Source: Dudresnaya verticillata
Lineage: Eukaryota
DNA: 64,000 bases
NCBI GenBank assembly: GCA_977862235.1
Contig: OZ374564.1
Location: 1 to 64,000, forward strand
Direction of reading: 5' to 3'
How positions within the stretch are numbered: position 1 is the first letter of the stretch; each line of letters begins with the position of its first letter. Below, piece by piece: positions 8,752 through 64,000 of the stretch. The translations under genes were made by a program, and so were the position numbers. A model generated the notes under the pieces. That model ran no database searches and was not told the origin of the DNA. It saw only the letters and a list, made by a program, of their open reading frames with translations.

Positions 8752-8780
8752 TAAACCCCTAAACCCCTAAACCCCTAAAC
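8752..8780. repeat. Internal telomeric tract 2
   Basis: TAAACCCCTAAACCCCTAAACCCCTAAAC directly abutting the truncated duplicated block. Confidence 0.95.
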
Positions 8781-12416: not shown

Positions 12417-12513
12417 CCCCTAAACCCCTAAACCCCTAAAAACCCCTAAACCCCTAAAACCCCTAAAAACCCCTAAACCCCTAAACCCCTAAAACCCCTA
12501 AACCCCTAAAACC
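12417..12513. repeat. Internal telomeric tract 3
   Basis: About 11 CCCCTAAA(A) units in the same orientation as the terminal array. Confidence 0.95.
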
Positions 12514-14388: not shown

Positions 14389-14406
14389 TAACCCCTAAAC
14401 CCCTAA
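14389..14406. repeat. Internal telomeric tract 4 (~2 units)
   Basis: TAACCCCTAAACCCCTAA exactly at the point where the RecQ ORF is cut. Confidence 0.8.
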
Positions 14407-36845: not shown

Positions 36846-36851
36846 TACCAA

Positions 36852-36897
36852 GAGATGGAGACCTTTATGCATAGGAAAGACTACAGCCCCGTAAGGG
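36852..36897 (-). mobile_element. 46-bp retroposed terminal fragment with an 11-bp target-site duplication
   Basis: GTTAATACCAA at 36841 and 36898. The insert recurs at 52580-52626, with a related copy at ~37855-37875. Confidence 0.65.
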
Positions 36898-38099: not shown

Positions 38100-38572
38100 T
38101 CCCATTCAGCTGCATTCCCGAAACCGAACACATCCTTCTACTGCGCCTACGGCGGCTCTCATCTTCCCGCTCCCCTAAGCTCTCCTGGGCTGCCCGCACG
38201 ACCCTAGATGCCCTCTCGCGCTCGCCTGACCACTCGCTTCGTAGCGCCGTTGCCTGTCCCAAGTCCGCGGCTGAGCGGCACGCCCTGAACCTGCAACGCT
38301 GGTACATTGACCTCCAAGGGCGACGACCTGCTCCTGTTTATACGTCTGACCGCCATCTCGCAGTCCGCTGGCATTTGGGTACATTCCCGATCCCACCCCC
38401 CGATCCCACTCTCGCCACACGCGTCCGAATCGCTTCCACAACACTGGCACTGCTGGGCCAGCCTGAACCTACCTCGGCCACGCTACGTGACGTCTCCCAG
38501 AGCATTGAAGACATTCGCCGCGTTGGCTTTCAACACAGCCAGCCTCCCGACTCGGCCCCTTCAACCCAATAG
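38100..38572 (+). mobile_element. Non-LTR retrotransposon C-terminal fragment (RWHLGTFP family)
   Basis: SWAARTTL...GRRPAPVY...RWHLGTFP aligns with the 34075-34500 region. Confidence 0.75.
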
Positions 38573-38754
38573 CACGCCTTGAAGATATACAGTCATTGTT
38601 CCTCCTTCCCATGCGATAGCGTGCTGGCTCATAGGCCTTTGTTGCCGATGCCGGTGCACTCAAAACTGTCCTATAAAGTTTAATATCACTTTACTCCTAG
38701 GACACGGTCCCCGTCTTCTTCATGTAAATTCACTACTCTGTTCGTACAGTACCA

Positions 38755-40085
38755 TTACCATAACACACTACACGGCTGCATCTCCATCTCCGCCCCTTGT
38801 ACCTTTGCCGACCCCTTCGTCCGGTGCCGGTTGCCGCGCTTAGGCCCGCTATGTATCTCCGAATGAGCCACCTTAACGTTCCTTATCCGCGGGATCAATC
38901 CCTTCAGCATCGCGATCTCACTCGCCGTGTCCGCGTCGCTCTTCTCTGGGTACTGCGCAAGAGCCCACTTGAAGTACGCAAGAAACTCCTGCCAGTCCAT
39001 CACCCCCATCCTTGTCCATGTCTATCCCGGCCAGCGCCTGCTTGGTGTCCGTGTACTGTTTACCCCTAAACTACGGCGCGAGAAACCCGTGGTAGAACGA
39101 GTCAAAGTCCAGCGCCCCATCCTGCTTCCTCGCCTTCTACGAGTCCCAAAAGTCCCACACCTTGCGGAAATCCGCAATCACCCTCTGGTGGTGAGCATCG
39201 TGCACCTGCACGCGAGCAATCTCCTTGCTCATCTTCCCCGTCATCTGCCCCCAGCACCGGTCGAACAACACCGCCAGTCCCATCGCGCTCTGGCACTCTT
39301 CCTTCCGTCCCGCATTCAGGTCCACTAGCATCTGCGCCAGCATCTTATACACCATTGCCTCGGTAAACTGCACGTCGTCATCAAACAAGTACTTGAACCT
39401 GTTCACTTCTATGTTCGGCGACGCCAGCGTCGTCATCAGGTTCGTCTCGCGCTCCCCGAAAAGCTCTGTCATGTTGAACCAGCCCCCCGCCATTCCGTCC
39501 GAGTCAAACAAAATTTACAGCACCCGCTCTCCGTACACGTACTGCTTGGGGTGCGGGTCCTTCAGTGTCGTCGGCCGCGTAACCTCGATCGCCGCCTTCC
39601 GAAACTCCTGGTACCGGTATTTGGACAGCACCTTCTTATTCCCCATCCATACAAAGTTCATCAACACCATCGTCGAGCACGCGTGCCCCATCGCCGCACC
39701 CTCCACGCACAGGCAGCTCCACTTCCCGTTGCACCATGGGCCTTTAAGTCGCCCAAGTGGGACCACCTGTAACAACCAATAAACGTTTACCATCACGTCC
39801 GGTATCACATCCCCACCGGGGTCTTCAAATACTAGCGCAAACAGACGCTTTTCATTCTGGAGCTTCGAAAGAAACTCTACAATCTTCAACAACCGCTCTG
39901 GGGTTACCTCTAGAGCCGTCAGCATTTCATGGAGGTTCAACACCAACCGTCCTTCCGGGTTGATGTTCTAGTAAACCCAAAATCCTGTACAGCAGTAGCT
40001 GGTACATATCCTCGTATAACGTAGCTCTGAAGCCCCGGTGTCTATCTATTTCACCCTCGTCAATTCTCATCAAACTTGAGCTCAA
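38755..40085 (-). pseudogene. Decayed gene with a C-terminal EF-hand (DMDKDG.MDWQEF)
   Basis: Collinear ORF pieces 39515-39946, 39137-39511 and 38755-39009 joined by in-frame stops and a frameshift. Confidence 0.55.
39731..39783 (+). mobile_element. 53-bp LINE 3'-tail micro-insertion with a CGTT target-site duplication
   Basis: Matches the reverse complement of 44224-44276. CGTT at 39727 and 39784. Confidence 0.75.
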
Positions 40086-43000
40086 TCACTTTTCTAGAGA
40101 TCGTCTAAAGAGGTGAAGAAGGGCTGCTGGGATAGGAAGGAAACAGGAGCTGTCGTTTTCTAATCTGAAGAACACAAGGCTGTTTGTTGAACGCTTGAGA
40201 TCGTAGGCGACGGGGCTATTCGAAGAAAAAGATGGGGGTATTAATCGGCCGCCTCTCACGGTCTTGGCAAAAGTGCGTGGGTCACCGTGCCTGAGCAAAG
40301 CGGTAGAAACGTCTACCATACAGTAATGCAGTTATGGTTGCTATAGACTCGTAAAGAGCCTGTGGTACAACAAGCGGTGTATACGTACATTAGGGCATCT
40401 GCTGAAACGGCATGGATGGCGGATCTATTGTTTTCGTGATTTCCTTGGTTTCAAGTCTGCGACAGGAGGCGAACGGTGAAGAAGTGGCAGGACGAGTGTG
40501 ATGGAGTACGCGATGAGGCGGAGTTTGGCCTCGGAGCAATGCGGGTGCTTCAGAGGACGGAACGGCCCCATCTAGCGAGAAGGTCTCCCTCACCCGCCTT
40601 ACCTCTTTAGTATTTCAGTGCGTCGCGGTTTCTGTTAACAGGCGCAAGCTTGTTGACCGCCGCGCTAGCAACAGAGCGTATTACACCCCCTTAAGGGAGT
40701 TACTCTGAATCTTGCGATTAAAAGGATTCTTGTCTTATTGCGGATTATGATTGTGATACTTGGGGATAGATGTGAACCGGCGCAGGGGGTGCCCGACTCG
40801 CCCGTCAGGTGGCATAGGAGGGAGACCAGCGCGCTCGCATAGGCGTACTTGGATAGCTTTGCGTGGCCAGTTGCAGAGTACTGTAGAACAAGTACAATGC
40901 AATGCCCCGGCGGGGTACAATGCGGACATAGAGACGCTTGTCCAGGTACTGTACAGATCACATAGAGAGAGAACGTTTCTAAGCAGAAGCTCAAGAGGGA
41001 CGCTAACGCTTGTTAGTCCCAGAGGATGTCTATGCTGTGACGCTCCGAGCACAGGTCCTGCAGTACTCTTGAAATGATAGGAAGGGGATAATCGTGATTA
41101 GGACGATGCAGCAGTACTGCATTCCTTGCGCAACGTAATCAGAATGAGTGCGACGTACGCGGCGGGGTTCGTGTATGGCAAGCAGAAGACGTGGAAATGT
41201 GTATGGTATGCGATCCATTCGCTGGGCGATGGGAAGGAGTGATGATAAAGTTTACTCAACAAAGTTTAGAGTGCACGGGAACGAGTGAACCGCATTGCCG
41301 TTAGTGGCAGGGCTGTCGGGAAATTAGTTGCAATTGCAATTGTTGTTGCAGTGACATTGTATATTGCAATACTGTCCCTATTGGGTCGAGTAGAAATGTT
41401 GGAAGCCCTAGTGTTAAATGCAGTATACGATACGCATATGTGCGGCTTTGTGCGCGAGCGAGATCATATATATCGTTCTGTAGGCGCGTAAAACAACATC
41501 AACGGCATTGCACAAACTTATTGCACGACGTACGCATATGTTGCAGATGTTATTGGGGCGTGATGGCTGTTATGTTGCAATACTGTATATATTGCCGAAG
41601 GGGAGAGCATTGATGCAACATATTCCTGATTATCTTTAGTAGTCATTCGTCGTCCAGAGCGATGGCTTTGTGGAGTAGAGAATTGCATTTAGTAGAATCT
41701 ATGCGTTTTGGGATAGGTTGGAAATGAAACCTATGATCTCCATTAAGGTCTCTTCGACGCCCAAGAACCCACAGGCAACGTCCTGTACTGACATAAGACA
41801 TCCACGTACGCATTTGTACACGCTGCCTTGACCTCGTGCTGCCCTCAGAGACTGAAGGATGAACGCGGCCTCTTCCCACTGTACGGACCTAGAACGACTC
41901 CCTTCGTATGTGATCTACTGTAGCACTCTTGGAGTACGTTCTCCTATCGTTCTCCTATCGACTTGAGATAGAACGCTTTCTTCGAATCATATTGCATTTG
42001 TGCGAGCAATAACTTGCAATTTTAATGCTCCTAAAACGGATAGAAACCCTTACATTCGCAATTATATCCTGTGACTGCTACCCCATAAGCCCTATTATTG
42101 TTTCCGCGTTGCCGACCTTAGCAAAGCTGGCATTAAAGCAACAGAACCTCTCTAGAGAGGCCAAACAAAAAGGTTATTTTTGGCCTCGTTTGGTTTGTGG
42201 ATGGGTGGGAATGTTTGAACGTCGAATGAGAGAGAGGAGTGAAGCCTTGGGTGGTACGACGTGGTTGTGCTAATACGATTTTGGTCCGCTACCGGATTTT
42301 GTAACAGTTTTCCTCCATTTGTCGGGTTTGGTATGGAGGTTGTGGATAGTCTTCAAAAATTATTGCATGAGGAAAGGCTCTCATTTCGTTTCAAACGAGT
42401 TGACTGCAAACGAGTTGAGTACATACGAGTTGGGTGGAAAGTCGGTGAGTCGCGTTACCAGTTGGCAGCATCCGAAATGACTAAAATACTTCACGACATT
42501 ACTTACTCGGCTTACACATCCAGCTCCTGGTCTATGGAACTGCTTAGTTCTGGGAAAATTCAGTTTTGTTCTTCGGGAAGCCAGTATGGCGAGAAATGGC
42601 GAACGCAGGTGGAGCTAACGGTCCGCGAAGACATGTACACTTTGTTACGGCTCATCGCTGTATGGGTGAAAACTACGTAAGAATGCTGCGGTAGAAAGAA
42701 TGCTGAGAGGTTTTTGTAGAACCCTGCCGCGATGATAGTTTTGGACGGCTAGAGCGAGCGACGTTTGGCGTGCTGTTTGGTGGAGGAATGGAGAACGGTA
42801 TCCGACACCATTACCTTCACCTGCATCCGCCGCCTTACCTTTGCCGCATCCGCCGCCATTACACCATCGATAGACCTGACTGTGCTTCCGGATGCAGTAC
42901 CGTTTCGTGCTAGTCGGACTGTTGTCTGGCGTATGCGGAGTGACCATGCGCATATGCGTACAGTCTGGTGCATACAGTAGGCTACGCATCCGCTAACCGA

Positions 43001-44222
43001 TTATCAAAGTACTGTATTGTACTGACTGTCTGTAGTAAAGGCAGCGCGACCCGACCAGACGGTAAGCTCCCAGAGGGGAGAGGAAAGCGACCTTGCCACT
43101 ATCGAGCCCGAGCAAAAATCCTTCAACCGCGTTACCAGGGTCCGACAGCTCAAGAACCGGAGTTTGCCACATTTTGCAGACATGTTATGACCCTCCTCTA
43201 CCGAACTCTTAAGGCCGCGGGTGCTCGAAAGCGATACCACCTGCGGGTACTGGCTACTGACAACACCTACATCTGCGGAGCGGTGCTACCTCACCGTCGC
43301 TACCGACGGTGCCGCTTCTCTCGCCCTGACCGTTTGTTCTACTAATGGCTAAGCGGCGGGGCATCAACCAATCTCACTAACTGCTCCGCCTGTGTATCGT
43401 TCACAGCCTGATAGGCTATATACGGAAGCGTCGCTTGTCGATTTGTGGACCATCACGATCGAGCGAGCGAAGACGCGGGCGCTAGTCGACACTGCCGGCA
43501 GCTGCGGCACAGGGCTGTAGATGAAGCTGGAGACCGGGGTAACCGAGTCTTACGACTGGGGAGGCGTGCGGATTTGCGGAAAAGGGATTGCGGGAACAGG
43601 ACAAAGTCCGGACATATTGGCAGCGAAGCCGGCAGTAGCACCGTGTGTATTCTTGGGCTCGGTGGGTCCGTCCTTCCCGACGCAAAATGAGTGATGAGAT
43701 TTCGTACCACCGGTTGTACTGTTCCTCAACTTGCCGATGTTGCTGCGAGACGCAGAAAACGCAGGCGTCGGTGGGCAGGTTGCTGGTGACGTTTGCTTTG
43801 TTGCACAGCGGAGCAAGCGGAAGTCCGATATCGCACTACGATGCAGTTCTGATATGGGATCCATTCCGTTTGCACTTCGATATCGTTGGCTTGCTCAATT
43901 GTGCGCTCAGTTGTGCTCGGATGCAGAACCCCATCAGTGGCAATCCCGCAAGTTTGAGATTAAGCTTTACGAGATGATTCAAACTGAGGTTTGTAGCTGC
44001 CTGCGAACTTGCTGCGCTATAATTTGCTCATGATGCAGTTTGAGGAACTTATGGTATTGAAATCTGTTTGCGGTAGTGGTAGGCTTTGGCGCGGTGGGGA
44101 TGTGGGTCACATTTGGACGGGTGTTGGAGTAGGCTGTGACGTGACATGGGTGCACTGCATGTAGTGAGGGATTGTGGGTGCGCGGGGGTGGTAGCGTTGA
44201 GGGAGCAGAAGTGATGGTAAAC

Positions 44223-44772
44223 TTTTAATGGTTGTTTTAGGTGGTCCCGCTCGGGCGACTTAAAGGCCCATGTGCAGGCACACCAGGATCAGCTACAGTG
44301 GAAGAGGGCTGTCACTGTAGTGTACCCCGGGAAGGAAAAAAGGACAGCGGTGGTGTGTCTATGATTGGGAGGATGGCGGCGTGTTCAGAGAGGGAAACTC
44401 GGCAGAGCACAGGGTGCGGATGGCGGCGATCGTACTGGCAATGGTGTGTAGATCGTCTGGGGTGGCGTCTGGCTTGGAGAGCAGATGGAGGGCTTGGGTG
44501 TGGGTTCGAAGGGTTGCACGTTTGGTAGGGCAGGAAGGGAGGATGGGGAAGGTACCCAAATGCCACCGGATGGCCAGCAGTCTGTCGCGGTAGTCGTGCC
44601 TTAGGAGAATGCTGAGAATGTGGCTGGCGCGTTGTGTAGGAGGAGGGATTTTGCTGGTTTGGCGTCTCCACCCCGCCGTGCGGGGTCCCCATTTGGTACT
44701 GGGCGCTGGTACTGTCAACCAGGGGGAGGTCGCTTTATCATAGAGATAATAACAACCGAGTAGCCCCTATCC
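44223..44772 (-). mobile_element. Non-LTR retrotransposon 3' fragment (RWHLGTFP family) fused to the gypsy RT
   Basis: LAIRWHLGTFPIL in ORF 44359-44718; conserved tail at 44223-44280. Confidence 0.75.
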
Positions 44773-46810
44773 AATATAGGTGGAGAGATAAGGCGTCTCT
44801 TCAGTTCCTCGAAGGCTTCATATTCCGTATCGGATAATATTCCAAACTCAAAGGGTGAGCCCTTGCCGGTTTTCTTATTCAGCGGTGCTGAAATCCGAGC
44901 GAAGTTGGGTACAAAGCGACGATACACGTTGCACATTCCCAAGAAGGATCGCAATTCCGTTTGGTTAGTCGGCGGCTTCGCGACCTTAACGGATTGGATA
45001 TTCCGATTATCCACTTCTAATTTTCCGGGACGGATAACATGCCCCAGGTATTGTACAGACGCGTTGAAGAAGTCACACTTTGACAATTTCAACGTTACCC
45101 CAGCGGATCGTAAAAGCGTAAGGACTTCCTTCAGGTGGTGGAAATGTTCCGTAACGGTTTTTGAGTAGACAATTACATCGTCCAGGTAGACGAGGGCAAA
45201 TTGCCATTTAACCGTAGAAAGGATTATATCCACTGCCCGTTGGAAGGTTGCCGGTGCATTTTTCAATCCGAATGGCATTCTCCGAAAACGGTATAAGCCA
45301 AAATGGCTAGTGAAGGTAGTTTTGTCCCTTTCCTCTTCCGGAATCTCGACTTGCCAATATCCGCTATTGCAATCCAGGGTTGTAAATACAGTAGCTTCCC
45401 CAAGGGAATCTATGCACTCATCCATCCTGGGCAAGGGATATGAGTCCCTAACCGTTACGGAATTGAGCCTTCTATAGTCAACACAGAACCGCATGGTGCC
45501 GTCCTTTTTTGGAACGAAAACCACGGGGCTGGCCCACTCCGATGAGGCTGGTTCAATTACCTTAGCGGAAAGCATGCGATCGATCTCTGTCTTTTCGAGA
45601 TCTCGCTGCTTATGTCCGGCACGGTATGGGGCTTGATATACTGGCTTAGCTTCGGGAGTTAACTCGATGCGGTGCTTGGCAGCTGTAATGTTGCCAAGAT
45701 CGCCACTCCACATCGACTTATATTCCTCCAGTAGGGTTAAAATCCGTTTGCGGAGCGATGCTTCTTCTGTTCCGATCTGGACTTGATCCTTCCAGTCGGT
45801 AGTATTTGTATTTTCCGTTACGGGTTTGCTTAGTTCCTTGTCGTGAGGGGAGATGCTGCTGGCCTTTTCGGAGGTAGGGTTAGAATTAAATGATTGAATA
45901 ATTCCCCCCCCTCCTTAAATGGAGGTATACCGTCAACGGTAAAAATAGCAGAGGGGGCAGCAGTAGCGAGGCCCACGACAGTAGATTTGGGCAACCGTAC
46001 CGGCTTGTTAGAAAAATTAGAGACCCAGATCCGAAACGGTTTGTTTGGTACAACATCCATAATGCCATTAGCCATTAACGTAAGGTGCTTAAAAGCCGGC
46101 TTAGGATGATTTTGTAGAAAGCATAACCCACCCGTGGGGGGATTAACCGTTACGGTGGCTTGAGCCATAGGGGGAATAAGGGTAGATTTTGCTAAACAAA
46201 TTTTCTGAGAAACCGTAGCGGTAGAGAGAGGTGAGGGCTGTAGGGTTGCAGTGGTTCCCGTCTTCGGAATTTTGGCTTGACCAACAAGGGATACCGGTGG
46301 GTAATGATGAAAAACAACTTTCCGTAACGGAGGGAGTATTGCCTTCACGTAGCGGTCGATGAAGGTAGTTCCCAAAATACAGGGAGCCGCCAAGTTCGCG
46401 ACCACTAGAAACTGGACGCGAGCACGGAGCTCTCCGATACGGACGAAAAGTTGGATCTGACCAAGAGGGCGTATAGCGCGATTAGACGCATCCCGTAATG
46501 GAGGACTGGCGGCTGGGCGTATGAGTGGGAGCCATTGGCGCGGAAGGCGCCTGGCACTAATGAGATTGGGCCCAGCGCCAGAGTCCAAGACGGAGATTAA
46601 AGGAAGCATCACGCTATCTGTCCGTCCCACGGTAATTTGCATCTTGTAATTTTGATGTTGCATAAAGAAGATAGTATCATTGGTCTGATAAGCCAATGGG
46701 AGTTCCGTAACGGTATCTCGCCGATCCCCTGGCGGGTCCACACTCGCGAGAGGTGGAACGCCGTGAGACGGGGATGGCGGCGCCCTTACGCATCCCCCCT
46801 TGAGTTTTCC
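44773..46810 (-). pseudogene. pol: Pol (aspartic protease + RT), frameshifted and truncated
   Basis: LDSGA protease motif; WASPVVFVPKKDG, RFCVDYRRLN, MPFGLKNAPATFQ and YLDD. Frameshift at the C homopolymer ~45904-45911. Confidence 0.9.
46770..46810 (-). promoter_or_regulatory. Predicted -1 ribosomal frameshift signal between gag and pol
   Basis: Slippery G-GAA-AAC (46810-46804); a -1 shift enters the pol frame. Followed by a GGGGATG...CATCCCC stem-loop. Confidence 0.7.
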
Positions 46811-49266
46811 GAATTCAAGGTTCCACCAGTCGGATCCGCCTCCATGGGCTCGCGCAATTCTGCGAGTTCCACTCCGTCATGGTCCTCCACCGATAGTATC
46901 GGGGCATTCCGTTGCGGAGGGGGCGTTTGCGGTCTGCCCCGATTCCCTTGCGGATTCGAACTGGTTCCTACTACGAACCTGCGACCTACAGGGTAGTGCT
47001 TCTGGAAGTTGCGCTCGCGCTCTTCCATAAGCCTAACCCGATCGGAGTCATGTATCCATGGGCAAACAACGTGCTCTGGCGAAAGGCAGATGCGACAGTT
47101 ACCACTTCCGTAAAGGCGTCGGACCCGAGGATCCGACTCATCCCGTAGCGGAGGTGCTTGTTGCTGCTGTCCTCGCCCATCGTGGGCATTATTTCCGTAA
47201 CGGTGACTCGGCTGCTGTTGGGGGCCAGGAGCCGGGCGAGATCCACCATAGGGGGGACCTTGCGCGCGTGGCATCCTGGGCGGAGTAGGGTGGACGCTTT
47301 GCGGGGGCGAGGAGTACGGGGTAGAAAAGGTAACCCCCGTGCTCGTACCCGTAGCGGCACCGTGGCCTCCCTCGACGGCTAGCACTTGATTATCCGTAGC
47401 GGAAAGATTCCCTTGCGACTCATAGTGTACATCCGATACGGAATCCAGCGACAACACCTTAGACGGGCGCGCTTTAGTGCGCCCATCAAAGACGTGAGCC
47501 GGAACGGTTTGGCGTCGAGCTGCCCGATGGGACTGACCCAGGCCAGTCGCATAGCGAGTGATGGCCTGGTAATCCAACTGGGAATGCGTCGCTAGATAAT
47601 TTCTCATCTGTTGACGAGTACCCGGTAGGAGTCCTTCAACGAACAGTGACTTCAATGCCCGATCGGAAAATACTGTACCGCAACGGAGAGCCTTGGCCTT
47701 GAGCTGGTTCGAGTACTGCTCTTCCGTCATGGTGGATGTTTGCCTGAAGTTGGTGACATCCGTATAGGCTTCAGCAATCACTTCATCCTTAGCGTAGGTT
47801 CTCAATAAAAAGTTCACCACCTCGGAATATGTGCGGAGCATCTCGGCCTGCTCCACATCAACCGCCATGGTACCTCCAGCAAGCCTAGCCTGTAGAAGGG
47901 CTTCGGCCTGTCCTTTAAGGAAAAACTGGAAGCACCAGACGGCAACCCCTTCGGCGATGCCGTTGATGTTACAACCGTCACGGAACTTAGCGAGAAATCC
48001 CAAGACGGTAATAGGGTCCGTCCCATCGAATGTATGGGACGACATCTGGACGTCGAGTTTCTTCCGTATACGGCTCATGTTCTGTGAGAACTTAGAGCCG
48101 TAGGTCTTACTCCTCTTATCCAATCGGTAGGTGCGGTAGTCCAGCGCCTTGACAAACTTGTCATGTAGCGGCCGGATTACCTTAACCTTTCCGGATTTGG
48201 CACCGTGTTTTCCGGCCCGGTGCCTATTCTCCCTATCCGTTACGGAAGAACTCTCTGAGTCTGAATCCGTAGAGGTAGAGGGGTCATGCCTTTTTTCGCG
48301 TTTCCGCGATCTTCTGTTTCTCCTCTTGCGGCGGCGGTGTTGGCTATCCTCTGAGCTGCTCTCATTGGATTCCATACCGGATTGGTGGTGTCGTCGCTGG
48401 GTGTGGTCGTCCATGTGCGACCGACGGGGAGGGTCAGAGCGGGAGTGTCGGGCATCTCGTTTATGCCGACCTCGACCGGTCCTCCGACTCGGATGGGGTG
48501 AGCTGGACGCATCGCTGAGATGGTCGCTGCCTCCACCTGATCGAACCGGAACGGTATAGCGCTCTTGCTGATAGCGCCCTGGCGTAGGCACATCTACGTG
48601 TCCAGGTGAATACCGTAACGGTGGCTGAGTGTGTGTTGGTCCCGTAGGGGCGTGTTGATGTTGAGAATCCGTTACGGGAGCCGGTGGCAGTGGTCCAGAG
48701 GGTACTGTGCCCGGCGGCAATCCCATAACGGGGGGTTGTTGCGGCTGCTGCGTTCTTCCCTCGACCGGGAAGTCATTCCGTAACGGTGGTTGCTCAGTGA
48801 AAGCTTCCGTAGCGGGAGGCCTTGCCATGCCGGGAGCAATCTGGCTCTCGAGCTCGGCGGCCACCTTTTCCTGTAGGATCAAAGCTTGCACTATCCGAGG
48901 AAGGTGCTGCTCCAGATAGGAATTAACCAAAGATGGAACAGTTTCCGAGAGGGATATCTCCACCTCTTTTACCATTCCAGGTTGTACTTCCAATCGGAGA
49001 TGCTCTAGCACCCTAGGAAGGACCTCCGACAGAACCCAGTGGACCCGATGGGATTCCGGCTTGGGTTGCGGAGCTGCCTTCTTGGAGGCGTCTGATCCGA
49101 CACGGGAACGGGGAGCTTTACCAGCAACACCCTTTAGGATGTCTTCTGGGTTCTCCGCTCCGGAACGGATTTCACCTCCTTCACTGCGCAGACTGCGCGC
49201 AGCGGGGGTAGTGTCACCCGCTTTTGGTTCCGTAACGGGAGGGTCTGCGTGTTCTTCGTTCTGCAT
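46786..49266 (-). CDS. gag: Gag polyprotein (826 aa)
   Basis: Intact ORF after the LTR. Capsid-like FDGTDP...FRQ...FVEGL and a CxxC..H..C knuckle (CRICLSPEHVVC). Confidence 0.85.
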   Translation of the reverse strand: MQNEEHADPPVTEPKAGDTTPAARSLRSEGGEIRSGAENPEDILKGVAGKAPRSRVGSDASKKAAPQPKPESHRVHWVLSEVLPRVLEHLRLEVQPGMVKEVEISLSETVPSLVNSYLEQHLPRIVQALILQEKVAAELESQIAPGMARPPATEAFTEQPPLRNDFPVEGRTQQPQQPPVMGLPPGTVPSGPLPPAPVTDSQHQHAPTGPTHTQPPLRYSPGHVDVPTPGRYQQERYTVPVRSGGGSDHLSDASSSPHPSRRTGRGRHKRDARHSRSDPPRRSHMDDHTQRRHHQSGMESNESSSEDSQHRRRKRRNRRSRKREKRHDPSTSTDSDSESSSVTDRENRHRAGKHGAKSGKVKVIRPLHDKFVKALDYRTYRLDKRSKTYGSKFSQNMSRIRKKLDVQMSSHTFDGTDPITVLGFLAKFRDGCNINGIAEGVAVWCFQFFLKGQAEALLQARLAGGTMAVDVEQAEMLRTYSEVVNFLLRTYAKDEVIAEAYTDVTNFRQTSTMTEEQYSNQLKAKALRCGTVFSDRALKSLFVEGLLPGTRQQMRNYLATHSQLDYQAITRYATGLGQSHRAARRQTVPAHVFDGRTKARPSKVLSLDSVSDVHYESQGNLSATDNQVLAVEGGHGAATGTSTGVTFSTPYSSPPQSVHPTPPRMPRAQGPPYGGSRPAPGPQQQPSHRYGNNAHDGRGQQQQAPPLRDESDPRVRRLYGSGNCRICLSPEHVVCPWIHDSDRVRLMEERERNFQKHYPVGRRFVVGTSSNPQGNRGRPQTPPPQRNAPILSVEDHDGVELAELREPMEADPTGGTLNSENSRGDA

Positions 49267-49414
49267 GATACCTTAACGGAACACAACGGTTGTTCTTGCT
49301 TGTCTATCCAATATTCCGTAACGGGTTGTCGGTACAGCCGAATTCCTACCGTAGCGGATTTCGACGGCTGTTTCTTCCAACCGTGACGGTGTTCTAGGTC
49401 GGGAGACCAAAAGA

Positions 49415-50109
49415 TGTGGTGTAGTGAAAACCCACGAACTCCGAGACGGACAGCTGGCCTGACTTTCCTTAACGGACGAGAGCAACACTACCTCCACGGG
49501 GTGGTAGAGCAGTTCGCACCGAGACGGGAGAACAGCGAGCGGCTAACCGAGACGGATATTGGGAAGCAACAGACAAGGGGGTGGTACAAGTGCCGGGACG
49601 GACTCCGTAACGGTGGTGGTGGTAGACCGCAACGGGCTCGGCGCGGGGAAAACCGTAAAGGATTGGGCTAAGGTTGCTTACCCGTTTACCTTAGGAGCCG
49701 CTGCGGTGCCGCCCTGATATACAAGTCAGGGTGGCACCGATCGGTCCGGCCCGTGGGGGCCAGACCCTAGTGGTCTGGTCCTATGGTGGAATCGGCCCTG
49801 CTGGTCCCAATCTCCGACACGGACATGCGCAGCATTCTCATTGGCTGGCGCACTACTCTACATACTGTACAGATACTCACTAAAAATAAAGAATAAACAC
49901 TACAAATACTCCGGTATGGTTGGTGCGCTTCACTGCTGTACAGCAATGCGTACCGGCGCACAGCAATGCGTACCGGCGTACAGCAATGCGCACAACATCC
50001 GACACGGTTACACGTTGCCAGATCATCAGCGTGGCGTATTGCCACATCATCCGTTACGGTTGGCTCGCCGTCGGCGTGGCGCGTGCGCGCCACGGCTCAC
50101 TTCACCACA
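49415..50109 (-). repeat. 5' LTR of the gypsy element (695 bp)
   Basis: TG...CA ends with a 12-bp imperfect inverted repeat TGTGGTGTAGTG / CACTTCACCACA. A PBS-like TGGTCTCCCG follows on the minus strand. Confidence 0.8.
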
Positions 50110-50384
50110 GCAGTAACGTGAATAGATCCATTGGGATCCTGAAGGACACTAGGCGTATGAATGTGGCCTGCAGTAGAGCTGAAAAGCTGCTTGTTATCGT
50201 CGGGGATAGTTCAACCCTTGTGGAAGATGAGAAGGCGTGGAGATGGTACTGGGAGAGGTGCATTGAGCAGCATCATGGATCCGCCGTTGAAATCTGGGAA
50301 CCGAGAGAAGGACAGGTTGACTTTGTCCGCCGCGGTCGTTTGCGCTTGGCAATTGAGAACAAGAAGGTCACTTTCGACCTGTGA
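50110..50384 (+). pseudogene. C-terminal fragment of a UPF1/DNA2-like SF1 helicase interrupted by the LTR
   Basis: SNVNRSIGILKDTRRMNVACSRAEKLLVIVGDSSTL (motif VI region) begins exactly at the LTR edge. Confidence 0.75.
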
Positions 50385-50825
50385 ACAGTTTTGGACTCAG
50401 CATTGTTTCGCAAGATAAGTCGTTATCTCCGCTACCGCTCAATACACTTTGTACTATTCATGAAGTGAAGTGTAGGCGATTGTTAGGAAAAGATTGCTAG
50501 TATGAGAATCTTTGGCATTACTGGCATGTTGTTAAATGCTATTCGTGTGTGTCTTGAAGTTCATCGGGGTTTGAGAATGTCGTAGTATGTAAGTTAGTGA
50601 ACGTGTAGGGTATGCGCGATGTTTCGTCTCCATCGATGAAGGTTGGCAGCACAACTCATTGTAAGTGAAAAGACTCAGTATTTTCAGCATCATGGTGAAG
50701 TAGGCAGTTGGCGGTGGGGCACAGCGGGTGTTCTTACTGCGAAGGAGAGGAGTAGCATAGCGGTGACAGTGTGTGGAAGAAGCCACAATAGTTAGGGCGA
50801 GGTGTGCACTGAGCAGGGTGACGGG

Positions 50826-50996
50826 CCGAGAGCGCTAGATGGCGATGGTAGCAAGCATGGCTGGCGGGAGCGCTGGATGGCGGTGGTAGCGGGCATGGCT
50901 GGCGAGAACGCTAGATGGTGGTGTTTGTCGTTACAGCGGTAGCGGGCATGGTTGGTGAGAGCGCTAGATGGCGGTGGTAGTGGGCATGGCTGGGGT
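50826..50996. repeat. Short degenerate tandem repeat GAGCGCTAGATGGCGGTGGTAGCGGGCATGGCTGG, ~4 copies
   Basis: Direct reading of the sequence. Confidence 0.7.
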
Positions 50997-53240
50997 GGAG
51001 AGCCCAGGGAGGGATGAGCTGGCTGGAGCGGGAGCGAGGCATGGCGGGGGGGGAGGGGGAGGGAGGGAGAAGGCACGACCGGCTGGCGGGAACATGCATG
51101 GCTGGGTGGCCCGCGGGAGGGAAGGGGGGTGTATGTCCCGGATAAGCGAATAGGAATGCAGATGAGGATGTCCCCCTGTTGTCCGTGGGTATCCCCAGTA
51201 GCGCGCACCAATGCATTGCTGGAGAGCGTGGCGTAGCGACGTGTACATGCTGTGCGCCTGGTGGTAAGAGCCCGGCGGTGGCGCGTGGCACCCCGCGTCA
51301 ACACCGGCCCGGACCGAGGGCCACGGTCCGGTTCCTGGCCCCCGGGGGGCGGACCGGTCCCCGGAGGGCAGGGGCGCCCCCAGCGCTGCGGCGATTCCCG
51401 CTGCATAGGCCGCTGCAAGGAAGCGTGCCACCCAGGGCGTCCAATCAGGAGCACCATCTTGGCACTCGGTGGCCAATCCCAGGAGCGGGCTTGCAGCGCG
51501 GCGGCGAATACCAGAGCGACAAGTAAAATTGGACAAAAGGTTTTTGTCCATGGACAAAAGGTTGGCCCGACGCAGAGCTGGAAAACGCATGTCACGCATT
51601 ATGATACACCTTTGTTTGCTGCGTTTTGGTACAGAAACTGGACAAAAGGAATCGTCACGATCGTGCCCTACCCCCGGCTGCATCATTCCCGCAGTCGTAG
51701 ATTGTCAGCAGATTGGAACGAGTTCGTACAGTACTGTACTACTTTTGTTGCGGCAAAGTCAGGAGTGTTCGAGAGATTTCTCCGTGTCGCGCTTGCTGCA
51801 GCACGTCGCTCTGCTGCTTGGGCCCTGTTCGCTTTTCGGCATATCCATTTGCGAGAGCGGCTCGGGAACACCTTATGTTGCATCTTCGTGCAGACGTTAT
51901 GCTATGTCTTCTTTTTATGTGGCCACCGAGTGATGCTCCCAGAAATATCTCTCACCTGTATTGCAAGGGTAAAGTATTGCAGCCATCGTGATTCTTTGTA
52001 TGGTTGTAAGCAGTGCACCGAACAGGTTATCGAAGCCCGCAGCACGGTACCGCACACATTGTAACGCGCTGGTACCAAATTGGTAAAGTACAAAAACTCT
52101 GTTGTCTGGTTAAACGCTCATAACCAACGCTCGTGTCTAACGATATAATTGCTACAGATAGACGAGTCAGAAGTAGCGTCTCTGCTGCACAGTAACTATA
52201 AAGCTGAGCGAACTTCAAAATGCTTTTTGTGAGGATGGATTTGAGGACGCTGCGTCTACCACAGAACAGAAGTTGGCTCTTCGCATGAATAGACTTCTTC
52301 TTGGTAGTACTGGCAGTCTGATATTCCGTTGTTCACCGGAAAGCATGCGGGGGTCACATTCTGAAGGATTCCGTGAATTCATTCGAGTAGCTACGCGCTA
52401 ATTGCAGCCTCAAGCCTCGAAGCCTCGAGGATAGTGTTTATCAATAGTATCTCTTCATCATCCTTATGGCGTGATGCTTGAGGATGATGTTTGTTGAAAT
52501 AGCTAGCGTTAGCGAGCCTGAAAGACTTTATATTCTATAACGTTACCTCGCAGGAACAGGAGTTTGTTGCTGTATACGTGAGATGGAGACCTTTATGCAT
52601 AGGAAAGACTACAGCCCCCTAAGGGGCTTACCTAAAACTCATCTGAAAGGCGACGGTGGAAGAGAAAACAGCGGTTAACAATCACCGCGACAGATTGACG
52701 TACAAGAGAGGTGAGGTGGGTGAGAAGAGATAGTTTTTCAGATATCGGCGAAGTACCCTTCATACGTGTATTCCCCCTTTTTCATCAGAAATCTTCAAGC
52801 TCATTATGGGGCTTAGCAAGGGCTGGGCTCTAGGCGACGGTCTACCGGCTTACGCCAGATACCAGCCTCTGCGAACGCATTTTAGAACTAAAGAAGTGAG
52901 ACGAGTAAGATGGCACAGTATGTACCCATAGCTAGCACCTGAAACAACAATAAACAATAGACATCAACAGTGTTGCTCATGTAGCTCATCTATTTCCATA
53001 GTTGTGAAGACCCTCTACGACATAAGATTTGGTTTGCTCTTTGCGATTGGTTTATCTCAGACAAAGAGGCACGCTTGGAAAAAAGGACTGCACTACTAAC
53101 AGATAAGGGGAGCCTTTTCCAACATGTATGAGCTGCTGGCATGGCATCCCTACCTTGAGAATTAGCATACGAGGATGGACCTTCTGAAAACCGTAGCTGC
53201 GTGTCATGCTAGTCCAACCATGCGGATTCTCCCACTCCCC

Positions 53241-53468
53241 TTAATACAGGGGGATGCAGAAGGCATGCTTCTGGTCACAGAACGCATATCCGGACATCTG
53301 CTTGTTGCAGTCGCTATCCATCTGACACGGGTACAGCTCCTTCATGAACTTGATCATGGTCTGCAGGTTGACCTCCGGGCGCTTCGCCTCCTTCACTGCG
53401 GCACCATTAACAGCGCCGGAGACGAGGAGAACCACGAACAGCATAGCGAACATCTTGAAAAGAGCCAT
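53241..53468 (-). CDS. Small secreted cysteine-rich peptide (75 aa)
   Basis: Signal-peptide-like N-terminus, KR site and C-x5-C-x9-C-x6-C. AAAA-ATG-G start context; TATAAA ~105 bp upstream (53573-53578). Confidence 0.7.
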   Translation of the reverse strand: MALFKMFAMLFVVLLVSGAVNGAAVKEAKRPEVNLQTMIKFMKELYPCQMDSDCNKQMSGYAFCDQKHAFCIPLY

Positions 53469-54134
53469 TTTTGTGGGAGCGGGATAGAAACGTAAAGACG
53501 AGTGATGAAGGTTGTTGAAGAGGAAAGGTTGATGAGGAGGGCTTTTCGTATCGGAAGGAAAACTAGCGTAGGTTTATACATTAGTCACTACATCGTGCTC
53601 ATGAATGGAAACAGAGGTGGGCTCTGAAATGCAAGGTTGCGATCTTGCGTACGGACATGATGTAAGAGCGGTAAAGAAGCTGAATCTGCGCTCAGATACC
53701 GTGCGGGAAGTGCTCTGAGGAAGACGAGGATGCAACCTTGTCCGTTCTGGAGCACACAGCTGCTCCCGCGATCGCAGACTCTGAGGCACAGAGCGCCCCC
53801 ATATGTTCATTTCCAATGTTCACACGATGAAGATGATGATGTTCACACCCGACCATGCCAAACGATCAAAGAATGCACTTTTTTGAAGGGTTGATGCAAC
53901 TCTCTTGCAACATGAATTGTACTGAACTGTATGAGCTCGCATGCAGCCCGGCTTGCGCGTACTTGATAGTGATAGGAAGAAACGTTTCTGAATAGTGTGC
54001 GTAAGCCGGATGACTATTGATGGTCGTATTGATAGAGGATGATATCATCGTCTGAAGAGGCCCTGATGATTGTCTGATCTTTGCGGAGCCCCCTTTGTTA
54101 TGGGGCTACAGTAGTAGCATCTCGCGGAGTCAAG

Positions 54135-56242: not shown

Positions 56243-59200
56243 ATGGTGGACTCTGTGCTTTCTCTCCTCGAGACCAGTATCAAGGTTGTTCAGCACATTC
56301 GTAATAGTCTTGAAGCTCGCAAACAAAACGCAACATCCTTCGTGACGATAGCCAATGGCATTCAACGTATTCGCTTGGCTTATCAAGACTTTCGCAACAA
56401 CCACTACCTCTCCGCCATCCACGACGATGTCAGCAGCCACATTAGAGCAGAGTTGGAAATGGTTCAGCCCCATTTGGAGGCACTTTCGCAGCAGGTAGAC
56501 AAACGAAAGCCTTTACGCTTGTTGCTAGGCGCCATCGAAGCTCGTGAGGCGATCATAAAGGTACAATCCCTTGTGACAGGGCTAGAAAGACACTTGGATG
56601 CTTGTCGGCTCATGGTGAAACACTTTCAGATCCATGACTCCCGCCTCAGTGAAATATATGAACTGTTGCACAAGCATGTCATCAAAGAGGTTCCGAGCTC
56701 TTCCTCTGCGGGAGACGTGACGGCACAAGATGAGGTGGTCTCAATCGATGCCACTTCTGCGCGACTTCAAGGAACAGATCCGAGCAGCTCGAGTAGCCCC
56801 AGTCAGACCTCGCCCCACTCTCCAGGCCCGACAATGAGTATACAATCTGAACAGCTTGATAAGGAGGAGGAGGACGAGATCCAATTCATATCGTCGCTGC
56901 CCATGGCGATGAAGTTGATAGCGAAAAGCGATGTCCCGGAAGATGTGAAACGGAAGCTACAGCAGAAGATAGACGACTTCCAGACTCGGTGGGAGTTGAA
57001 GTTTGACGACTTGGTGTTTGAGAAAGGCAGAAGGGGAGGATGGGTCGAGTTGGGCGAAGGCGGTTTCAGCAGGGTGTACAAAGCGAAGCTCCGCCAAGGT
57101 GAAACATTCCTAGAAGTGGCAGTCAAAGAGCTAAAGGTAAAGAAGCCGGAACTGGAGAAGTTCAAGCCAAAGTTTTTGCGTGAGGTGCACGGCCTGATTC
57201 AGTACCGGCATCGCTGTATCTTGGAGGCACATGGGGCCATCTGGGCGAAGAGCGATGAGACAGAAGACGGTCACAACCCGATGATTGTTCTAGAACGCAT
57301 GACCTGCAGCCTCCACGAAGCGATTCAAGAATGCTCGGCAGCGGTGGAGGACATGGCTGTGAGAAAGGGTATCGCGCTGGATGTGGCTGCTGCGCTCGCA
57401 CATCTGCACGAGAAGAGCGTTGTTCACAGGGACGTGAAGCCTGAAAACGTGTTGCTGTGTGTTAGGAACAGCGAGGTTGTGCGGCCTGCCAAGCTGTGCG
57501 ACTTTGGCGTATCGCGAGAAGTGCAGGTGACAAAGCAGATGGAAGCGTATGCGCTGAGGAGTAGTAGAGGAGCTGCGTCAGGGACGGTTGTTTTCATGCC
57601 ACCAGAGGTGCTCAAGGACCAAAGAAAGGCGCCGACGCGTCCGTCGTGGGATGTGTGGAGCTTTGGACTACTTTTATGTTTCCTGGGGGGTGGGGCGACG
57701 TCCTTTTCGGAACTGGATTTCATTAACGCCCTGGGTCTAGCAAGAGAAGATCAGCTTGGAGCAGTCGCACGAGAATGGGCGGACTCCATTGGGGATGAGG
57801 CGATGAGGACGGCTGCGTTGCGTTGTTTACAGTCGAAGTGGAAGGAGCGTTGCACTATGGCTGATGTGGTGGCGATTATTTCGCAGGGTATACCAGCTCC
57901 GAGTGACACGGAATTTGCCAGCCTTCTTCTTGACCCACGATGGATGACCATAGATAGCAGTCCTTTGGACATCCCTGGGTGGAAGGAGAATGTGAAAGAG
58001 TTGCGGTGGGCGTGCTTGGCAAATGGGTTGGTTGGTGAAGAAGATTTCGATGCGGGCATGAAGTTGCTGCGGTCAGCAGCGCGAGAGAGCTGGCCGTTCA
58101 TTTTTCGAAACCCGAGGGAGCTGATGTTCCAGATGCAGTCGCGCTTGGTGGACTCATGCGATGAGTCATGGCTCGTGCGGCGGTACCTTGAGACGGCCAG
58201 CAAGGTGTCCCCCACACCTCGAGTTCGATCATTAACTCGGTGCTGGAACATTCCCGGTGGTCGACAAGAGATGGAAATCCCATGTGCGGACAGTGTATGG
58301 AGCTTGGCTGTGACAGGGGATGAAGGAAAAGCTGTGGCAGGCATTGGGAGCAAAGTAGTGCTCATCGACTTGGAAAGCAGTGTTGTCATCCGCGAGTACA
58401 TCGGCCACGAGAGTGCGGTGGAGTGCGTGGCGGTGACGCCAGACGGGCGGCACGTCGTGTCCGGGTCGGGCGACAAGACGTTGCGGGTGTGGGAGTTGGG
58501 GAGCGGCAAGCCCGTGGGGGAGCCGTTGCGCGGTCACACGAGTTGGGTGCGGTGCGTGGCGGTGACGCCAGACGGGCGGCACGTCGTGTCCGGGTCGGAA
58601 GACAAGACGTTGCGGGTGTGGGAGTTGGGGAGCGGCAAGCCCGTGGGGGAGCCGTTGCCCGGTCACACGAGTTCGGTGGAGTGCGTGGCGGTGACGCCAG
58701 ACGGGCGGCACGTCGTGTCCGGGTCGCGGGACAAGACGTTGCGGGTGTGGGAGTTGGGGAGCGGCAAGCCCGTGGGGGAGCCGCTGCGCGGTCACACGCG
58801 TTGGGTGTGGTCCGTGGCGGTGACGCCAGACGGGCGGCACGTCGTGTCCGGGTCGTGGGACAAGACGTTGCGGGTGTGGGAGTTGGGGAGCGGCAAGCCC
58901 GTGGGGGAGCCGTTGCGCGGTCACACAGATTGGGTGCGGTGCGTGGCAGTGACGCCAGACGGGCGGCACGTCGTGTCCGGGTCGGAAGACAAGACGTTGC
59001 GGGTGTGGGAGTTGGGGAGCGGCAAGCCCGTGGGGGAGCCGTTGCGCGGTCACACGAGTTGGGTGCGGTGCGTGGCGGTGACGCCAGAAGGGCGGCACGT
59101 CGTGTCCGCGTCGGGCGACAGGACGTTGCGGGTGTGGGAGTTGGGGAGCGGCAAGCCCGTGGGGGAGCCGTTGCCCGGTCACACGGATTGGGTGCGGTGC

Positions 59201-59800
59201 GTGGCGGTGACGCCAGACGGGCGGCACGTCGTGTCCGGGTCGGGGGACAAGACGTTGCGGGTGTGGGAGTTGGGGAGCGGCAAGCCCGTGGGGGAGCCGT
59301 TGCACGGTCACAATAATTCGGTGCGGTGCGTGGCGGTGACGCCAGACGGGCGGCACGTCGTGTCCGGGTCGTCGGACGGGACGTTGCGGGTGTGGGAGTT
59401 GGGGAGCGGAAAGCCCGTGGGGGAACCGAAAGCGTTTTCGTCATGGGTTGCGAGCGTTGAATGTTTTGGGGCGAGTACTGTGAAGGCTCGTGCTTGGAAT
59501 GGGAATGAACGTTACTATGAGGTGAGTGGAAATGGTCTGCGGGAGATTGATGCGGCTGTTGGAAGAGTTCGTGAGAATGAAGTGCTGCGCGGGAGTGGAA
59601 GCCATCGGAGCGGGTCTGCAGCGGAGGCTGTCGTACGGGTCTCGGGGCGGTCAGTGCGCCTCGGGCAGGACGGGCCGATTCTCGCGACCCTTCCGACAGC
59701 TTTGGCCGAGCCTGGGACGTGGGACTACAATGCTGCGGAAGGTCGACTGGTCGTCGGGCTTCGAGACGGACGTGTGTTGGCGTTGGAGGTGGAGACGTAA
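56243..59800 (+). CDS. MLKL-like four-helix-bundle / protein kinase / WD40-repeat protein
   Basis: Intronless ORF. Kinase motifs GEGGFSRV, VAVK, HRDVKPEN, DFG, MPPE and DVWSFG; 8 WD40 repeats; amphipathic helical N-terminal ~130 aa. Confidence 0.92.
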   Translation: MVDSVLSLLETSIKVVQHIRNSLEARKQNATSFVTIANGIQRIRLAYQDFRNNHYLSAIHDDVSSHIRAELEMVQPHLEALSQQVDKRKPLRLLLGAIEAREAIIKVQSLVTGLERHLDACRLMVKHFQIHDSRLSEIYELLHKHVIKEVPSSSSAGDVTAQDEVVSIDATSARLQGTDPSSSSSPSQTSPHSPGPTMSIQSEQLDKEEEDEIQFISSLPMAMKLIAKSDVPEDVKRKLQQKIDDFQTRWELKFDDLVFEKGRRGGWVELGEGGFSRVYKAKLRQGETFLEVAVKELKVKKPELEKFKPKFLREVHGLIQYRHRCILEAHGAIWAKSDETEDGHNPMIVLERMTCSLHEAIQECSAAVEDMAVRKGIALDVAAALAHLHEKSVVHRDVKPENVLLCVRNSEVVRPAKLCDFGVSREVQVTKQMEAYALRSSRGAASGTVVFMPPEVLKDQRKAPTRPSWDVWSFGLLLCFLGGGATSFSELDFINALGLAREDQLGAVAREWADSIGDEAMRTAALRCLQSKWKERCTMADVVAIISQGIPAPSDTEFASLLLDPRWMTIDSSPLDIPGWKENVKELRWACLANGLVGEEDFDAGMKLLRSAARESWPFIFRNPRELMFQMQSRLVDSCDESWLVRRYLETASKVSPTPRVRSLTRCWNIPGGRQEMEIPCADSVWSLAVTGDEGKAVAGIGSKVVLIDLESSVVIREYIGHESAVECVAVTPDGRHVVSGSGDKTLRVWELGSGKPVGEPLRGHTSWVRCVAVTPDGRHVVSGSEDKTLRVWELGSGKPVGEPLPGHTSSVECVAVTPDGRHVVSGSRDKTLRVWELGSGKPVGEPLRGHTRWVWSVAVTPDGRHVVSGSWDKTLRVWELGSGKPVGEPLRGHTDWVRCVAVTPDGRHVVSGSEDKTLRVWELGSGKPVGEPLRGHTSWVRCVAVTPEGRHVVSASGDRTLRVWELGSGKPVGEPLPGHTDWVRCVAVTPDGRHVVSGSGDKTLRVWELGSGKPVGEPLHGHNNSVRCVAVTPDGRHVVSGSSDGTLRVWELGSGKPVGEPKAFSSWVASVECFGASTVKARAWNGNERYYEVSGNGLREIDAAVGRVRENEVLRGSGSHRSGSAAEAVVRVSGRSVRLGQDGPILATLPTALAEPGTWDYNAAEGRLVVGLRDGRVLALEVET
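58403..59434 (+). repeat. Eight tandem 129-bp (43-aa) WD40 coding repeats
   Basis: GH...VAVTPDGRHVVSGS.D.TLRVWELGSGKPVGEP with an exact 129-nt period. Confidence 0.97.
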
Positions 59801-63093: not shown

Positions 63094-64000
63094 ATGGTGG
63101 ACTCTGTGGTTTCTCTCCTCGAGACCAGTATCAAGGTTGTTCAGCACATTCGTAATAGTCTTGAAGCTCGCAAACAAAACGCAACATCCTTCGTGACGAT
63201 AGCCGATGGCATTGAACGTATTCGCTTGGGTTATCAAGACTTTCGCAAGAACCACTACCTCTCCGCCATCCATGACGATGTCAGCAGGCACATCAGCGCA
63301 GAGTTGGAAATGGTTCAGCCCCATTTGGAGGGACTTTCGCAGCAGATAGACAATCGAAGGCCTTTCCGCTCGTTGCTAGGCAGCATCGAAGCTCGTGAGG
63401 CGATCATACAGGTAAAATCCTTTGTGACAGGGCTAGAAAGACACTTGGATGCTTGTCGGCTCATGGTGAAACACTTTCAGATCCATGACTCCCGCCTCAG
63501 TGAAATATATGAACTGTTGCACAAGCATGTCATCAAAGAGGTTCCGAGCTCTTCCTCTGCGGGAGGGGTTACGGTACAAGAAGAGGTGACGGTAATCGAC
63601 GCTACCTCTGCGCGACTTCAAGGAACAGATCCAAGCAGCTCGAGTAGTCCCAGTCAGACCTCGCCCCACTCTCCAGGCCCGACAATGAGTATACAATCTG
63701 AACAGCTTGATAAGGAGGACGAGGACGAGATCCAATTCATATCATCGCTGCCCATGGCGATGAAGTTGATAGCGAAAAGCGATGTCCCGGAAGATGTGAA
63801 ACGGACGCTACAGCAGAAGATAGACGACTTCCAGACTCGGTGGGAGTTGAAGTTTGACGACTTGGTGTTTGAGAAAGACAGAAGGGGGTGGGTCGAGTTG
63901 GGTGAAGGTGGTTTCAGCAGGGTGTACAAAGCGAAGCTCCGCCAAGGTGAAACATTCCTGGAAGTGGCAGTCAAAGAGCTAAAGGTAGAGGAGTCGGAAC
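63094..64000 (+). CDS. Tandem paralogue of the four-helix-bundle/kinase gene (partial, runs off the window)
   Basis: ATG at 63094, collinear with 56243-57150 and open to the window end; upstream homology back to ~62720. Confidence 0.9.
   Translation, partial: MVDSVVSLLETSIKVVQHIRNSLEARKQNATSFVTIADGIERIRLGYQDFRKNHYLSAIHDDVSRHISAELEMVQPHLEGLSQQIDNRRPFRSLLGSIEAREAIIQVKSFVTGLERHLDACRLMVKHFQIHDSRLSEIYELLHKHVIKEVPSSSSAGGVTVQEEVTVIDATSARLQGTDPSSSSSPSQTSPHSPGPTMSIQSEQLDKEDEDEIQFISSLPMAMKLIAKSDVPEDVKRTLQQKIDDFQTRWELKFDDLVFEKDRRGWVELGEGGFSRVYKAKLRQGETFLEVAVKELKVEESE

Follow-up and report, generated by a model that had tools for sequence, protein, structure and literature searches.

The 64,000-nt stretch of Dudresnaya verticillata analysed here (positions 1 to 64,000 of contig OZ374564.1, assembly GCA_977862235.1, forward strand; hereafter the window) carries a gene that unites a protein kinase and an array of highly similar WD40 repeats in a single uninterrupted open reading frame (ORF). 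This ORF, here P0001 (56243-59800, + strand, 1185 aa), is read from its N-terminus as a helical domain, a Ser/Pro-rich linker, three predicted helices, a Ser/Thr kinase, a helical arm and, toward the C-terminal end, the WD40 array, which the original prediction had described from the sequence as homogenised at the DNA level and diversified at a few binding-face residues.

The repeat array

The array (58403-59434, +) is composed of eight 129-nt units of 43 aa, all in frame, as established both by Tandem Repeats Finder (period 129 nt, 58423-59428, 7.8 copies, 93% matches, 0% indels) and by cutting the sequence in register from 58403, in agreement with the eight near-identical units first proposed. 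Pairwise identity averages 91.8% for nucleotides (range 84.5-96.1) and 87.2% for amino acids, an internal identity above the 80% that characterizes the WD40 units of HNWD/NWD NLRs, and no two of the eight units are identical (5-20 differences per pair). The predicted near-identity at synonymous sites also holds, only 3 of the 23 four-fold degenerate codons outside seven variable codons (3, 4, 5, 7, 8, 23 and 25) being variable.

Translation of units 1 to 8 recovers the listed variants: ESA/TSW/TSS/TRW/TDW/TSW/TDW/NNS after GH, EC/RC/EC/WS/RC/RC/RC/RC after V, and, around SxD, G/E/R/W/E/G/G/S before the D and K/K/K/K/K/R/K/G after it. The last residue (codon 43) is variable as well, with R/P/R/R/R/P/H in units 1-7, while unit 8 leaves the array with A; unit 6 carries two further singleton replacements, D14E and G21A. 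Among the first 123 alignment columns 21 are variable, nine of them within the 12 nt of codons 5, 7, 23 and 25 (hypergeometric p=3.6e-6), a set fixed a priori from the HNWD paper, and 15 within the seven codons, a set chosen post hoc. As unit 8 departs from the array at codons 42-43, these two codons do not enter the rate counts.

The variable positions on the propeller fold

A single-sequence structure model of the array (pLDDT ~74-86) resembles WD40 propellers, among them the repetitive 2YMU and the eight-bladed Tako8. Strand a begins at position 6 in this model, codon 5 lies just ahead of it and positions 23-26 form the b-c loop. The V-R1-R2-V rule, with which Wu et al. define the top-face hotspots (PMC3419727), identifies positions 5, 7 and 23 as R1-2, R1 and D-1. 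Both the rule and the mapping onto the predicted propeller, where the variable codons fall before strand a and in the b-c loop, bear out the assignment of these sites to the top face. In Podospora HNWD genes, the codons under selection according to Paoletti et al. form two pairs, 7/9 and 25/27, on either side of conserved residues; these pairs lie 18 codons apart, within the d-a loop and the b-c turn (PMC1805685). The spacing and loop location of the pairs 5/7 and 23/25 agree with these positions, as had been anticipated, the correspondence being drawn from published positions and spacing.

The array is preceded by a divergent WD-like blade (58274-58402, +), recognized from its translation and the structure model, and followed by a 121-aa tail (59435-59800, +) devoid of Pfam match, for which the model predicts three strands at the end and which possibly forms cryptic closing blades. 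The propeller would thus count one divergent blade, eight conserved blades and an uncertain number in the tail, compared with 11 conserved and three cryptic blades in HET-E (PMC12222747). An equation of the tail with HNWD-type cryptic blades is unsupported, as it did not match the tail profiles of related proteins.

Selection and exchange among the repeats

Substitutions were counted as minimal changes per codon, ties being resolved toward synonymous changes and synonymous sites being taken array-wide. The four a priori codons accumulated 11 nonsynonymous changes over 9.5 sites against 7 synonymous changes over 32 sites array-wide (ratio 5.3, p=5.6e-4), so that dN/dS is elevated at the HNWD-matching codons in this tree-free count, whereas the array without the seven variable codons gives 0.12 (p=0.004). 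Diversifying selection, as in HNWD genes, is thus detected on eight units at the four top-face codons, the positional correspondence being an inferred one. Within the seven variable codons, variation affects 13 of the 14 first and second positions and two of the seven third positions (p=0.0055), and the V6 and D24 codons lying between variable codons show no change, a pattern that speaks against a local mutation hotspot. We infer that selection retains new top-face residues, which may confer different binding specificities.

Several features fit the repeat shuffling or gene conversion that the original prediction had read from variants recurring in new combinations. Incompatibility was found for 26 of 55 informative site pairs, near pairs being less incompatible than permuted ones in a test modelled on the pairwise homoplasy index (0.29 vs 0.47, p=0.025), and the best unit tree requires 22 steps for a minimum of 15. 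Divergence peaks at the edges of the array, where the units differ from the majority by 8 and 10 changes (2-6 for the others), and the G + C content at third codon positions (GC3) reaches 40/43 (0.93) in the array vs 0.595 in the rest of the gene (p=8.5e-7). A codon-level four-gamete test, of low power with many alleles, found 1 of 28 pairs incompatible. Exchange is therefore favored without being proven, because recurrent mutation at selected codons also makes homoplasy; unequal crossing-over or gene conversion would keep the blade scaffold uniform and recombine the variant codons.

Variation beyond this assembly was sought in sequencing runs. A contig of 159 nt from run X1 (depth 3) departs from the array at five bases, four of them in codons 7, 23 and 25 (p ~3e-4), and implies Q7 and E25, two residues absent from this array; it may represent an allele or a paralogue. 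Coverage of the gene by this DNA run (share 0.05) amounts to three short pieces (97-99%), that of 34100-54000 is almost nil, and the run is too thin for inferring copy number. No RNA run was among the runs listed as carrying the sequence.

Such repeat behaviour extends well beyond this gene. In a survey of WD40 repeats, 118 of the best 120 matches had at least six detectable repeats, and 79 of these 118 related arrays, bacterial and fungal, combine an internal identity above 0.65 with diversity peaks at positions 4, 5, 7, 23 and 25. The corresponding correlation (rho 0.62) is overstated, since the search pattern itself had fixed six columns. The same pattern was described by Hu et al. in highly repetitive WD40s, about half of them bacterial, a third fungal and none from animals or plants (PMC5587647), and Dyrka et al. 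(PMC4986451) and a 2026 Podospora survey (PMC13449251) described it across NLRs broadly, the latter also reporting an enrichment of high-identity repeats in NLRs. The repeat behaviour itself is therefore already known in fungi and bacteria; the new part is the architecture of the gene that carries it.

A helical arm without an ATPase

Between the kinase and the WD40 repeats lies a region of ~115 aa (aa ~557-673, 57911-58261, +) that is homologous to the HD2/arm, the helical region found ahead of the WD40 repeats in NB-ARC/STAND proteins, and appears to be a remnant of it. A phmmer search of 251 proteins with this region retrieved P0237 (E=4e-7) and P0190 and P0225 (2e-4), the best reversed control reaching 0.38; the arm alignments score 103 and 90, a level reached by none of 500 shuffles. 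A profile built from ten other proteins, without the query, matches aa 603-673 at E=1.2e-7. P0190 combines NB-ARC, an APAF-1-like WHD and APAF1_C, and P0237 contains NB-ARC. This profile matches 23 of 252 proteins at E<=1e-3, ten of them being its own members and P0237 not being listed at this cut-off. An upstream Walker A-like motif is present in 22 of the 23, P0001 being the sole match without it. The arm was missed by a broad pre-WD40 profile built on 109 mixed sequences and matched by the ten-member profile alone, and an Atlas search with aa 548-690 was uninformative (best 0.76).

The ~14 residues separating the kinase from the arm are too few to accommodate an NTPase. No NACHT or HET family was found in P0001 among the 25 of 49 Pfam matches listed, nor in segment scans. 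The protein thus lacks the P-loop NTPase and winged helix that define NB-ARC/STAND proteins and keeps, in part (aa ~557-673), the HD2/arm that stands ahead of their sensor repeats. It looks like an NLR sensor module in which the ATPase would have been replaced by a kinase, or deleted behind it. Two arm-profile matches, P0191 and P0228, carry both kinase and NTPase, and the origin of P0001 may therefore have been either a swap or an NTPase deletion. Repeats of 43 aa are also found in the closest arm match, P0237, those of P0190, P0138 and P0127 being of 42 aa. P0237, a Logan protein of 2060 aa, has an N-terminal extension without name followed by NB-ARC, arm and a long array of 43-aa WD40 repeats, and is possibly a full NLR of a related lineage.

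Kinase and N-terminal domain

The kinase (aa 269-543, 57047-57871, +; Pfam Pkinase, E=7.7e-36) displays intact catalytic motifs, i.e. the Gly loop at 271, the beta-3 Lys at 295, HRD at 395, DFG at 420 and PPE replacing APE at 453, and is a putatively active enzyme. A homologue search with aa 1-720 returned generic kinase matches only (148 of 7992 candidates, 120 of them listed), with ~24-41% identity to the kinase among those listed. No match was obtained in metagenome scans for the gene, or for the exact 1185-aa protein in the protein collection searched. A full-library search with aa 1-253 gave a lone match, rejected as a 33-fold repeat artefact.

The N-terminal domain (aa 1-147, 56243-56683, +) is predicted as a four-helix bundle in a low-confidence AF2 model (mean pLDDT 49; helices 2-25, 31-53, 57-86, 91-128 and 134-147). 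Compared with structures, this model resembles generic helical bundles (Z up to 14). In the Atlas, the top match of the domain is an unnamed fungal cluster (0.93), followed by clusters containing PF17111 (28% of members, 0.90) and SesA (26%, 0.89), the Atlas scores of the domain ranging over 0.88-0.93; PF17111 is Helo_like_N, related to MLKL (PMC9815663). No Pfam match lies above the cut-off, the N-terminal profile matched the N-termini of related proteins no better than reversed controls, and MLKL/HeLo did not appear among Foldseek or VIA matches, which, with a model of this confidence, excludes nothing. The resemblance to HeLo-like/SesA domains is a lead only. Three helices predicted at low confidence after the Ser/Pro-rich linker (aa 208-262, 56864-57028, +) may, by analogy, occupy the place of the brace of MLKL and Pm13 ahead of the kinase.

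Tandem paralogue and subtelomeric environment

A tandem paralogue starts 6851 bp downstream and is cut by the window end (63094-64000, +), with 89% aa identity over the first 151 aa. Nonsynonymous and synonymous differences stand at 18:2 for aa 1-150 and at 10:9 for aa 151-264 (Fisher p=0.014). In the comparison of 56243-56692 with 63094-63543, the bundle differences, mostly located in aa 38-110, depart from the pattern of the linker. The paralogues may thus be diversifying at their effector end (the bundle), with aa 151-264 under constraint (pN/pS 0.31, p=0.012).

A telomeric CCCCTAAA array occupies positions 1-1621 of the window, so that the gene is subtelomeric, ~55 kb from the chromosome end. 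The telomere repeat of Bostrychia, TTTTTAGGGG (bioRxiv 2025.02.11.637652), is of the G4 type, like the CCCCTAAA repeat here. Interstitial telomere-like tracts are located at 8752-8780 and 12417-12513, and a Sel1/TPR-repeat ORF lies near the telomere (2732-3760, -). The genes of the window appear intronless, which, together with the G4 telomere and a C-terminal TIR described below, points to a florideophyte red alga as the probable host.

Another ORF (35490-36845, +) has a C-terminal TIR_2 domain (E=7.7e-15) and two relatives at 44% and 33% identity. Its 5' end abuts a reverse transcriptase ORF on the opposite strand (34477-35661, -), and it may therefore be a Roco/COR-TIR-like gene broken by a retroelement, the region before the TIR being putatively COR-like by resemblance. 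A C-terminal TIR is likewise found in the TPR-ROCO-TIR protein of Chondrus (PMC11378527).

The remainder of the window is rich in mobile and duplicated sequences. These include a direct duplication (~8779-12080 and 15703-19007, 6924-bp spacing, 95-100% identical) with an identical 305-aa ORF, a DEAD/RecQ-like helicase fragment (14403-16169), and large Cys/His-rich ORFs without Pfam match together with a PIF1-like helicase (19417-23245, 25184-26764 and 28093-29454, all +), which possibly constitute a large DNA transposon. A MITE-like long inverted repeat (83 nt at 99% and 120 nt at 94%) lies at 30508-30952, an 83-nt inverted pair is found 4.4 kb apart at 39735-39817 and 44190-44272, and Gypsy-like gag, protease and reverse transcriptase ORFs follow each other in successive frames at 44715-49272 (-).

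Comparison with known systems

One of the nearest known systems is that of the HNWD/NWD proteins of Podospora anserina (HET-D, HET-E, HET-R), which share with P0001 high-identity WD40 units, divergent flanking blades and diversification at four positions, located in the d-a loop and the b-c turn (PMC1805685, PMC12222747). They carry HET/NACHT domains whereas P0001 has neither and has a kinase instead; their units are of 126 nt and number ~11, against eight units of 129 nt here, and their hosts are fungi, which the host of P0001 does not appear to be. P0001 would work like an HNWD sensor but does not belong to the NLRs, lacking the NTPase. NB-ARC-WD40 STAND proteins (Apaf-1-like proteins, P0190, P0225, P0237 and the Pyropia NB-ARC+WD40 candidates) share the homologous helical pre-WD40 region but have the NB-ARC and winged helix that P0001 lacks. 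P0237 further resembles P0001 in the 43-aa length of its repeats and in the size of its N-terminal extension, without sequence similarity between the two N-termini (336 of 500 shuffles score as high).

MLKL, wheat Pm13 (MLKL-K), the kinase of which is active (PMC11297308), and the HELL-kinase proteins existing in fungi (PMC12881547) display the order of helical bundle, brace-like helices and kinase predicted in P0001, the likeness to MLKL_NTD being one of predicted layout only; they do not have the fused variable WD40 sensor. Bacterial kinase-WD40 proteins (PkwA, PDB 5YZV; P0138) and repetitive WD40s (PDB 2YMU; Hu et al. 2017) have hotspot-variable repetitive WD40s, as P0001 does. The repeats most similar to those of this array belong to P0138 (68% over 32 columns). 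P0138 is not among the arm-profile matches, and the kinase-bearing matches P0191 and P0228 keep the NTPase, unlike P0001. In algae, NB-ARC+WD40 and TIR+kinase candidates have been reported in Pyropia (PMC6928737), and WD40 proteins were proposed as potential pathogen receptors in Asparagopsis (PMC12115072).

Among the papers listed by the literature searches, none described a bundle-kinase-arm-WD40 protein or red-algal high-identity WD40 arrays. Such genes may already be listed in the dataset of Hu et al. or in the supplements of red-algal genomes (Chondrus, Porphyra).

Proposed function and alternative explanations

Repeats varying on their predicted binding face, a kinase and an NLR remnant in one gene make a fast-diversifying non-self sensor likely. 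We estimate at roughly 0.6 the probability that the gene encodes a sensor of non-self that acts inside the cell and descends from an NB-ARC-WD40 (Apaf-1/NLR-like) receptor, in which arm and WD40 repeats were kept and a kinase took the place of the ATPase. The propeller would bind a variable non-self ligand on its top face, and the arm would relay this binding, releasing or clustering the kinase. HD2 has a role in the autoinhibition of Apaf-1. The kinase could then signal defence or cell death by phosphorylation without an ATPase switch, and the N-terminal bundle may act either as an autoinhibitor, as proposed for Pm13 (PMC11297308), or as an executor, as in MLKL (PMC12881547).

Several points weigh against this sensor reading. 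The arm match is partial and weak, its profile covers aa 603-673 only and its ten members were selected by a motif seen in the query alignment, while in Pfam APAF1_C has no direct match in P0001 and aa ~557-673 are without match. The dN/dS count draws on eight non-independent units, is tree-free and takes synonymous sites array-wide, and a pairwise Nei-Gojobori estimate for the four codons gives a less marked contrast (pN 0.40 vs pS 0.24), the two being about equal for the inner six units. The N-terminal fold is of low confidence, and the N-terminal pN/pS between paralogues (2.6) is not significantly above 1 (p=0.28). The evidence from run X1 is one low-depth contig which may be a paralogue, and bacterial kinase-WD40 proteins with similar repeats (8 of the 120 listed matches start with a kinase) have no shown immune role.

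A more elaborate version of the sensor reading is rather doubtful: a red-algal necroptosis-like receptor, in which HNWD-style shuffled WD40 repeats on an NLR arm would control an active kinase replacing NB-ARC and unleash an MLKL/HeLo-like membrane-disrupting bundle, within a subtelomeric tandem family diversifying both sensor and effector.

The same variable sensor could instead be directed not at pathogens but at conspecifics (fusion, mating, parasite-host or symbiont discrimination) or at another signal unrelated to defence. HET-D/E are allorecognition genes (PMC1805685, PMC12222747) and sequence cannot tell the two roles apart, but no partner gene was identified within the window, and a subtelomeric location with TIR and Sel1 ORFs close by is in keeping with a defence repertoire; we regard this alternative as unlikely. 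Less plausible still is a functionless chance chimera, in which a kinase gene was fused to an NLR tail in a transposon-rich subtelomere and its repeat signature was inherited or copied from true NB-ARC-WD40 genes elsewhere. The arm is only partly kept, Podospora pseudogenes retain intact repeats through exchange (PMC1805685) and the 3' part of the paralogue lies beyond the window end, all of which would suit such a chimera; the 3.5-kb ORF is however free of stops, its kinase motifs are intact, the paralogues are constrained in aa 151-264, as seen above, and the high divergence of the arm from known NLRs suggests an old fusion.

That one blade was recently amplified in tandem, in a single event, and that its copies then drifted neutrally at tolerant surface sites without ongoing shuffling or selection, is in our view improbable. 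Surface sites are the least constrained, the units are few and repeated mutation can yield homoplasy, but neutral sites should not exceed synonymous diversity, as these do about five-fold, most of these codons do not vary at their third position, and the raised GC3 and edge-unit divergence are at odds with drift. An assembly artefact is hardly credible as the source of the array: although such arrays are mis-assembled from short reads (PMC12222747) and the copy number could still be wrong, there are no indels and no identical units, differences cluster at codon positions 1-2, and a matching repeat junction is present in the independent run X1.

If the architecture of P0001 is functional, the sensor module of an NLR can be wired to a kinase without an ATPase/oligomerisation switch. 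It would then link NLRs with kinase-fusion resistance proteins and MLKL, and would provide a concrete candidate for variable immune receptors in red seaweeds.

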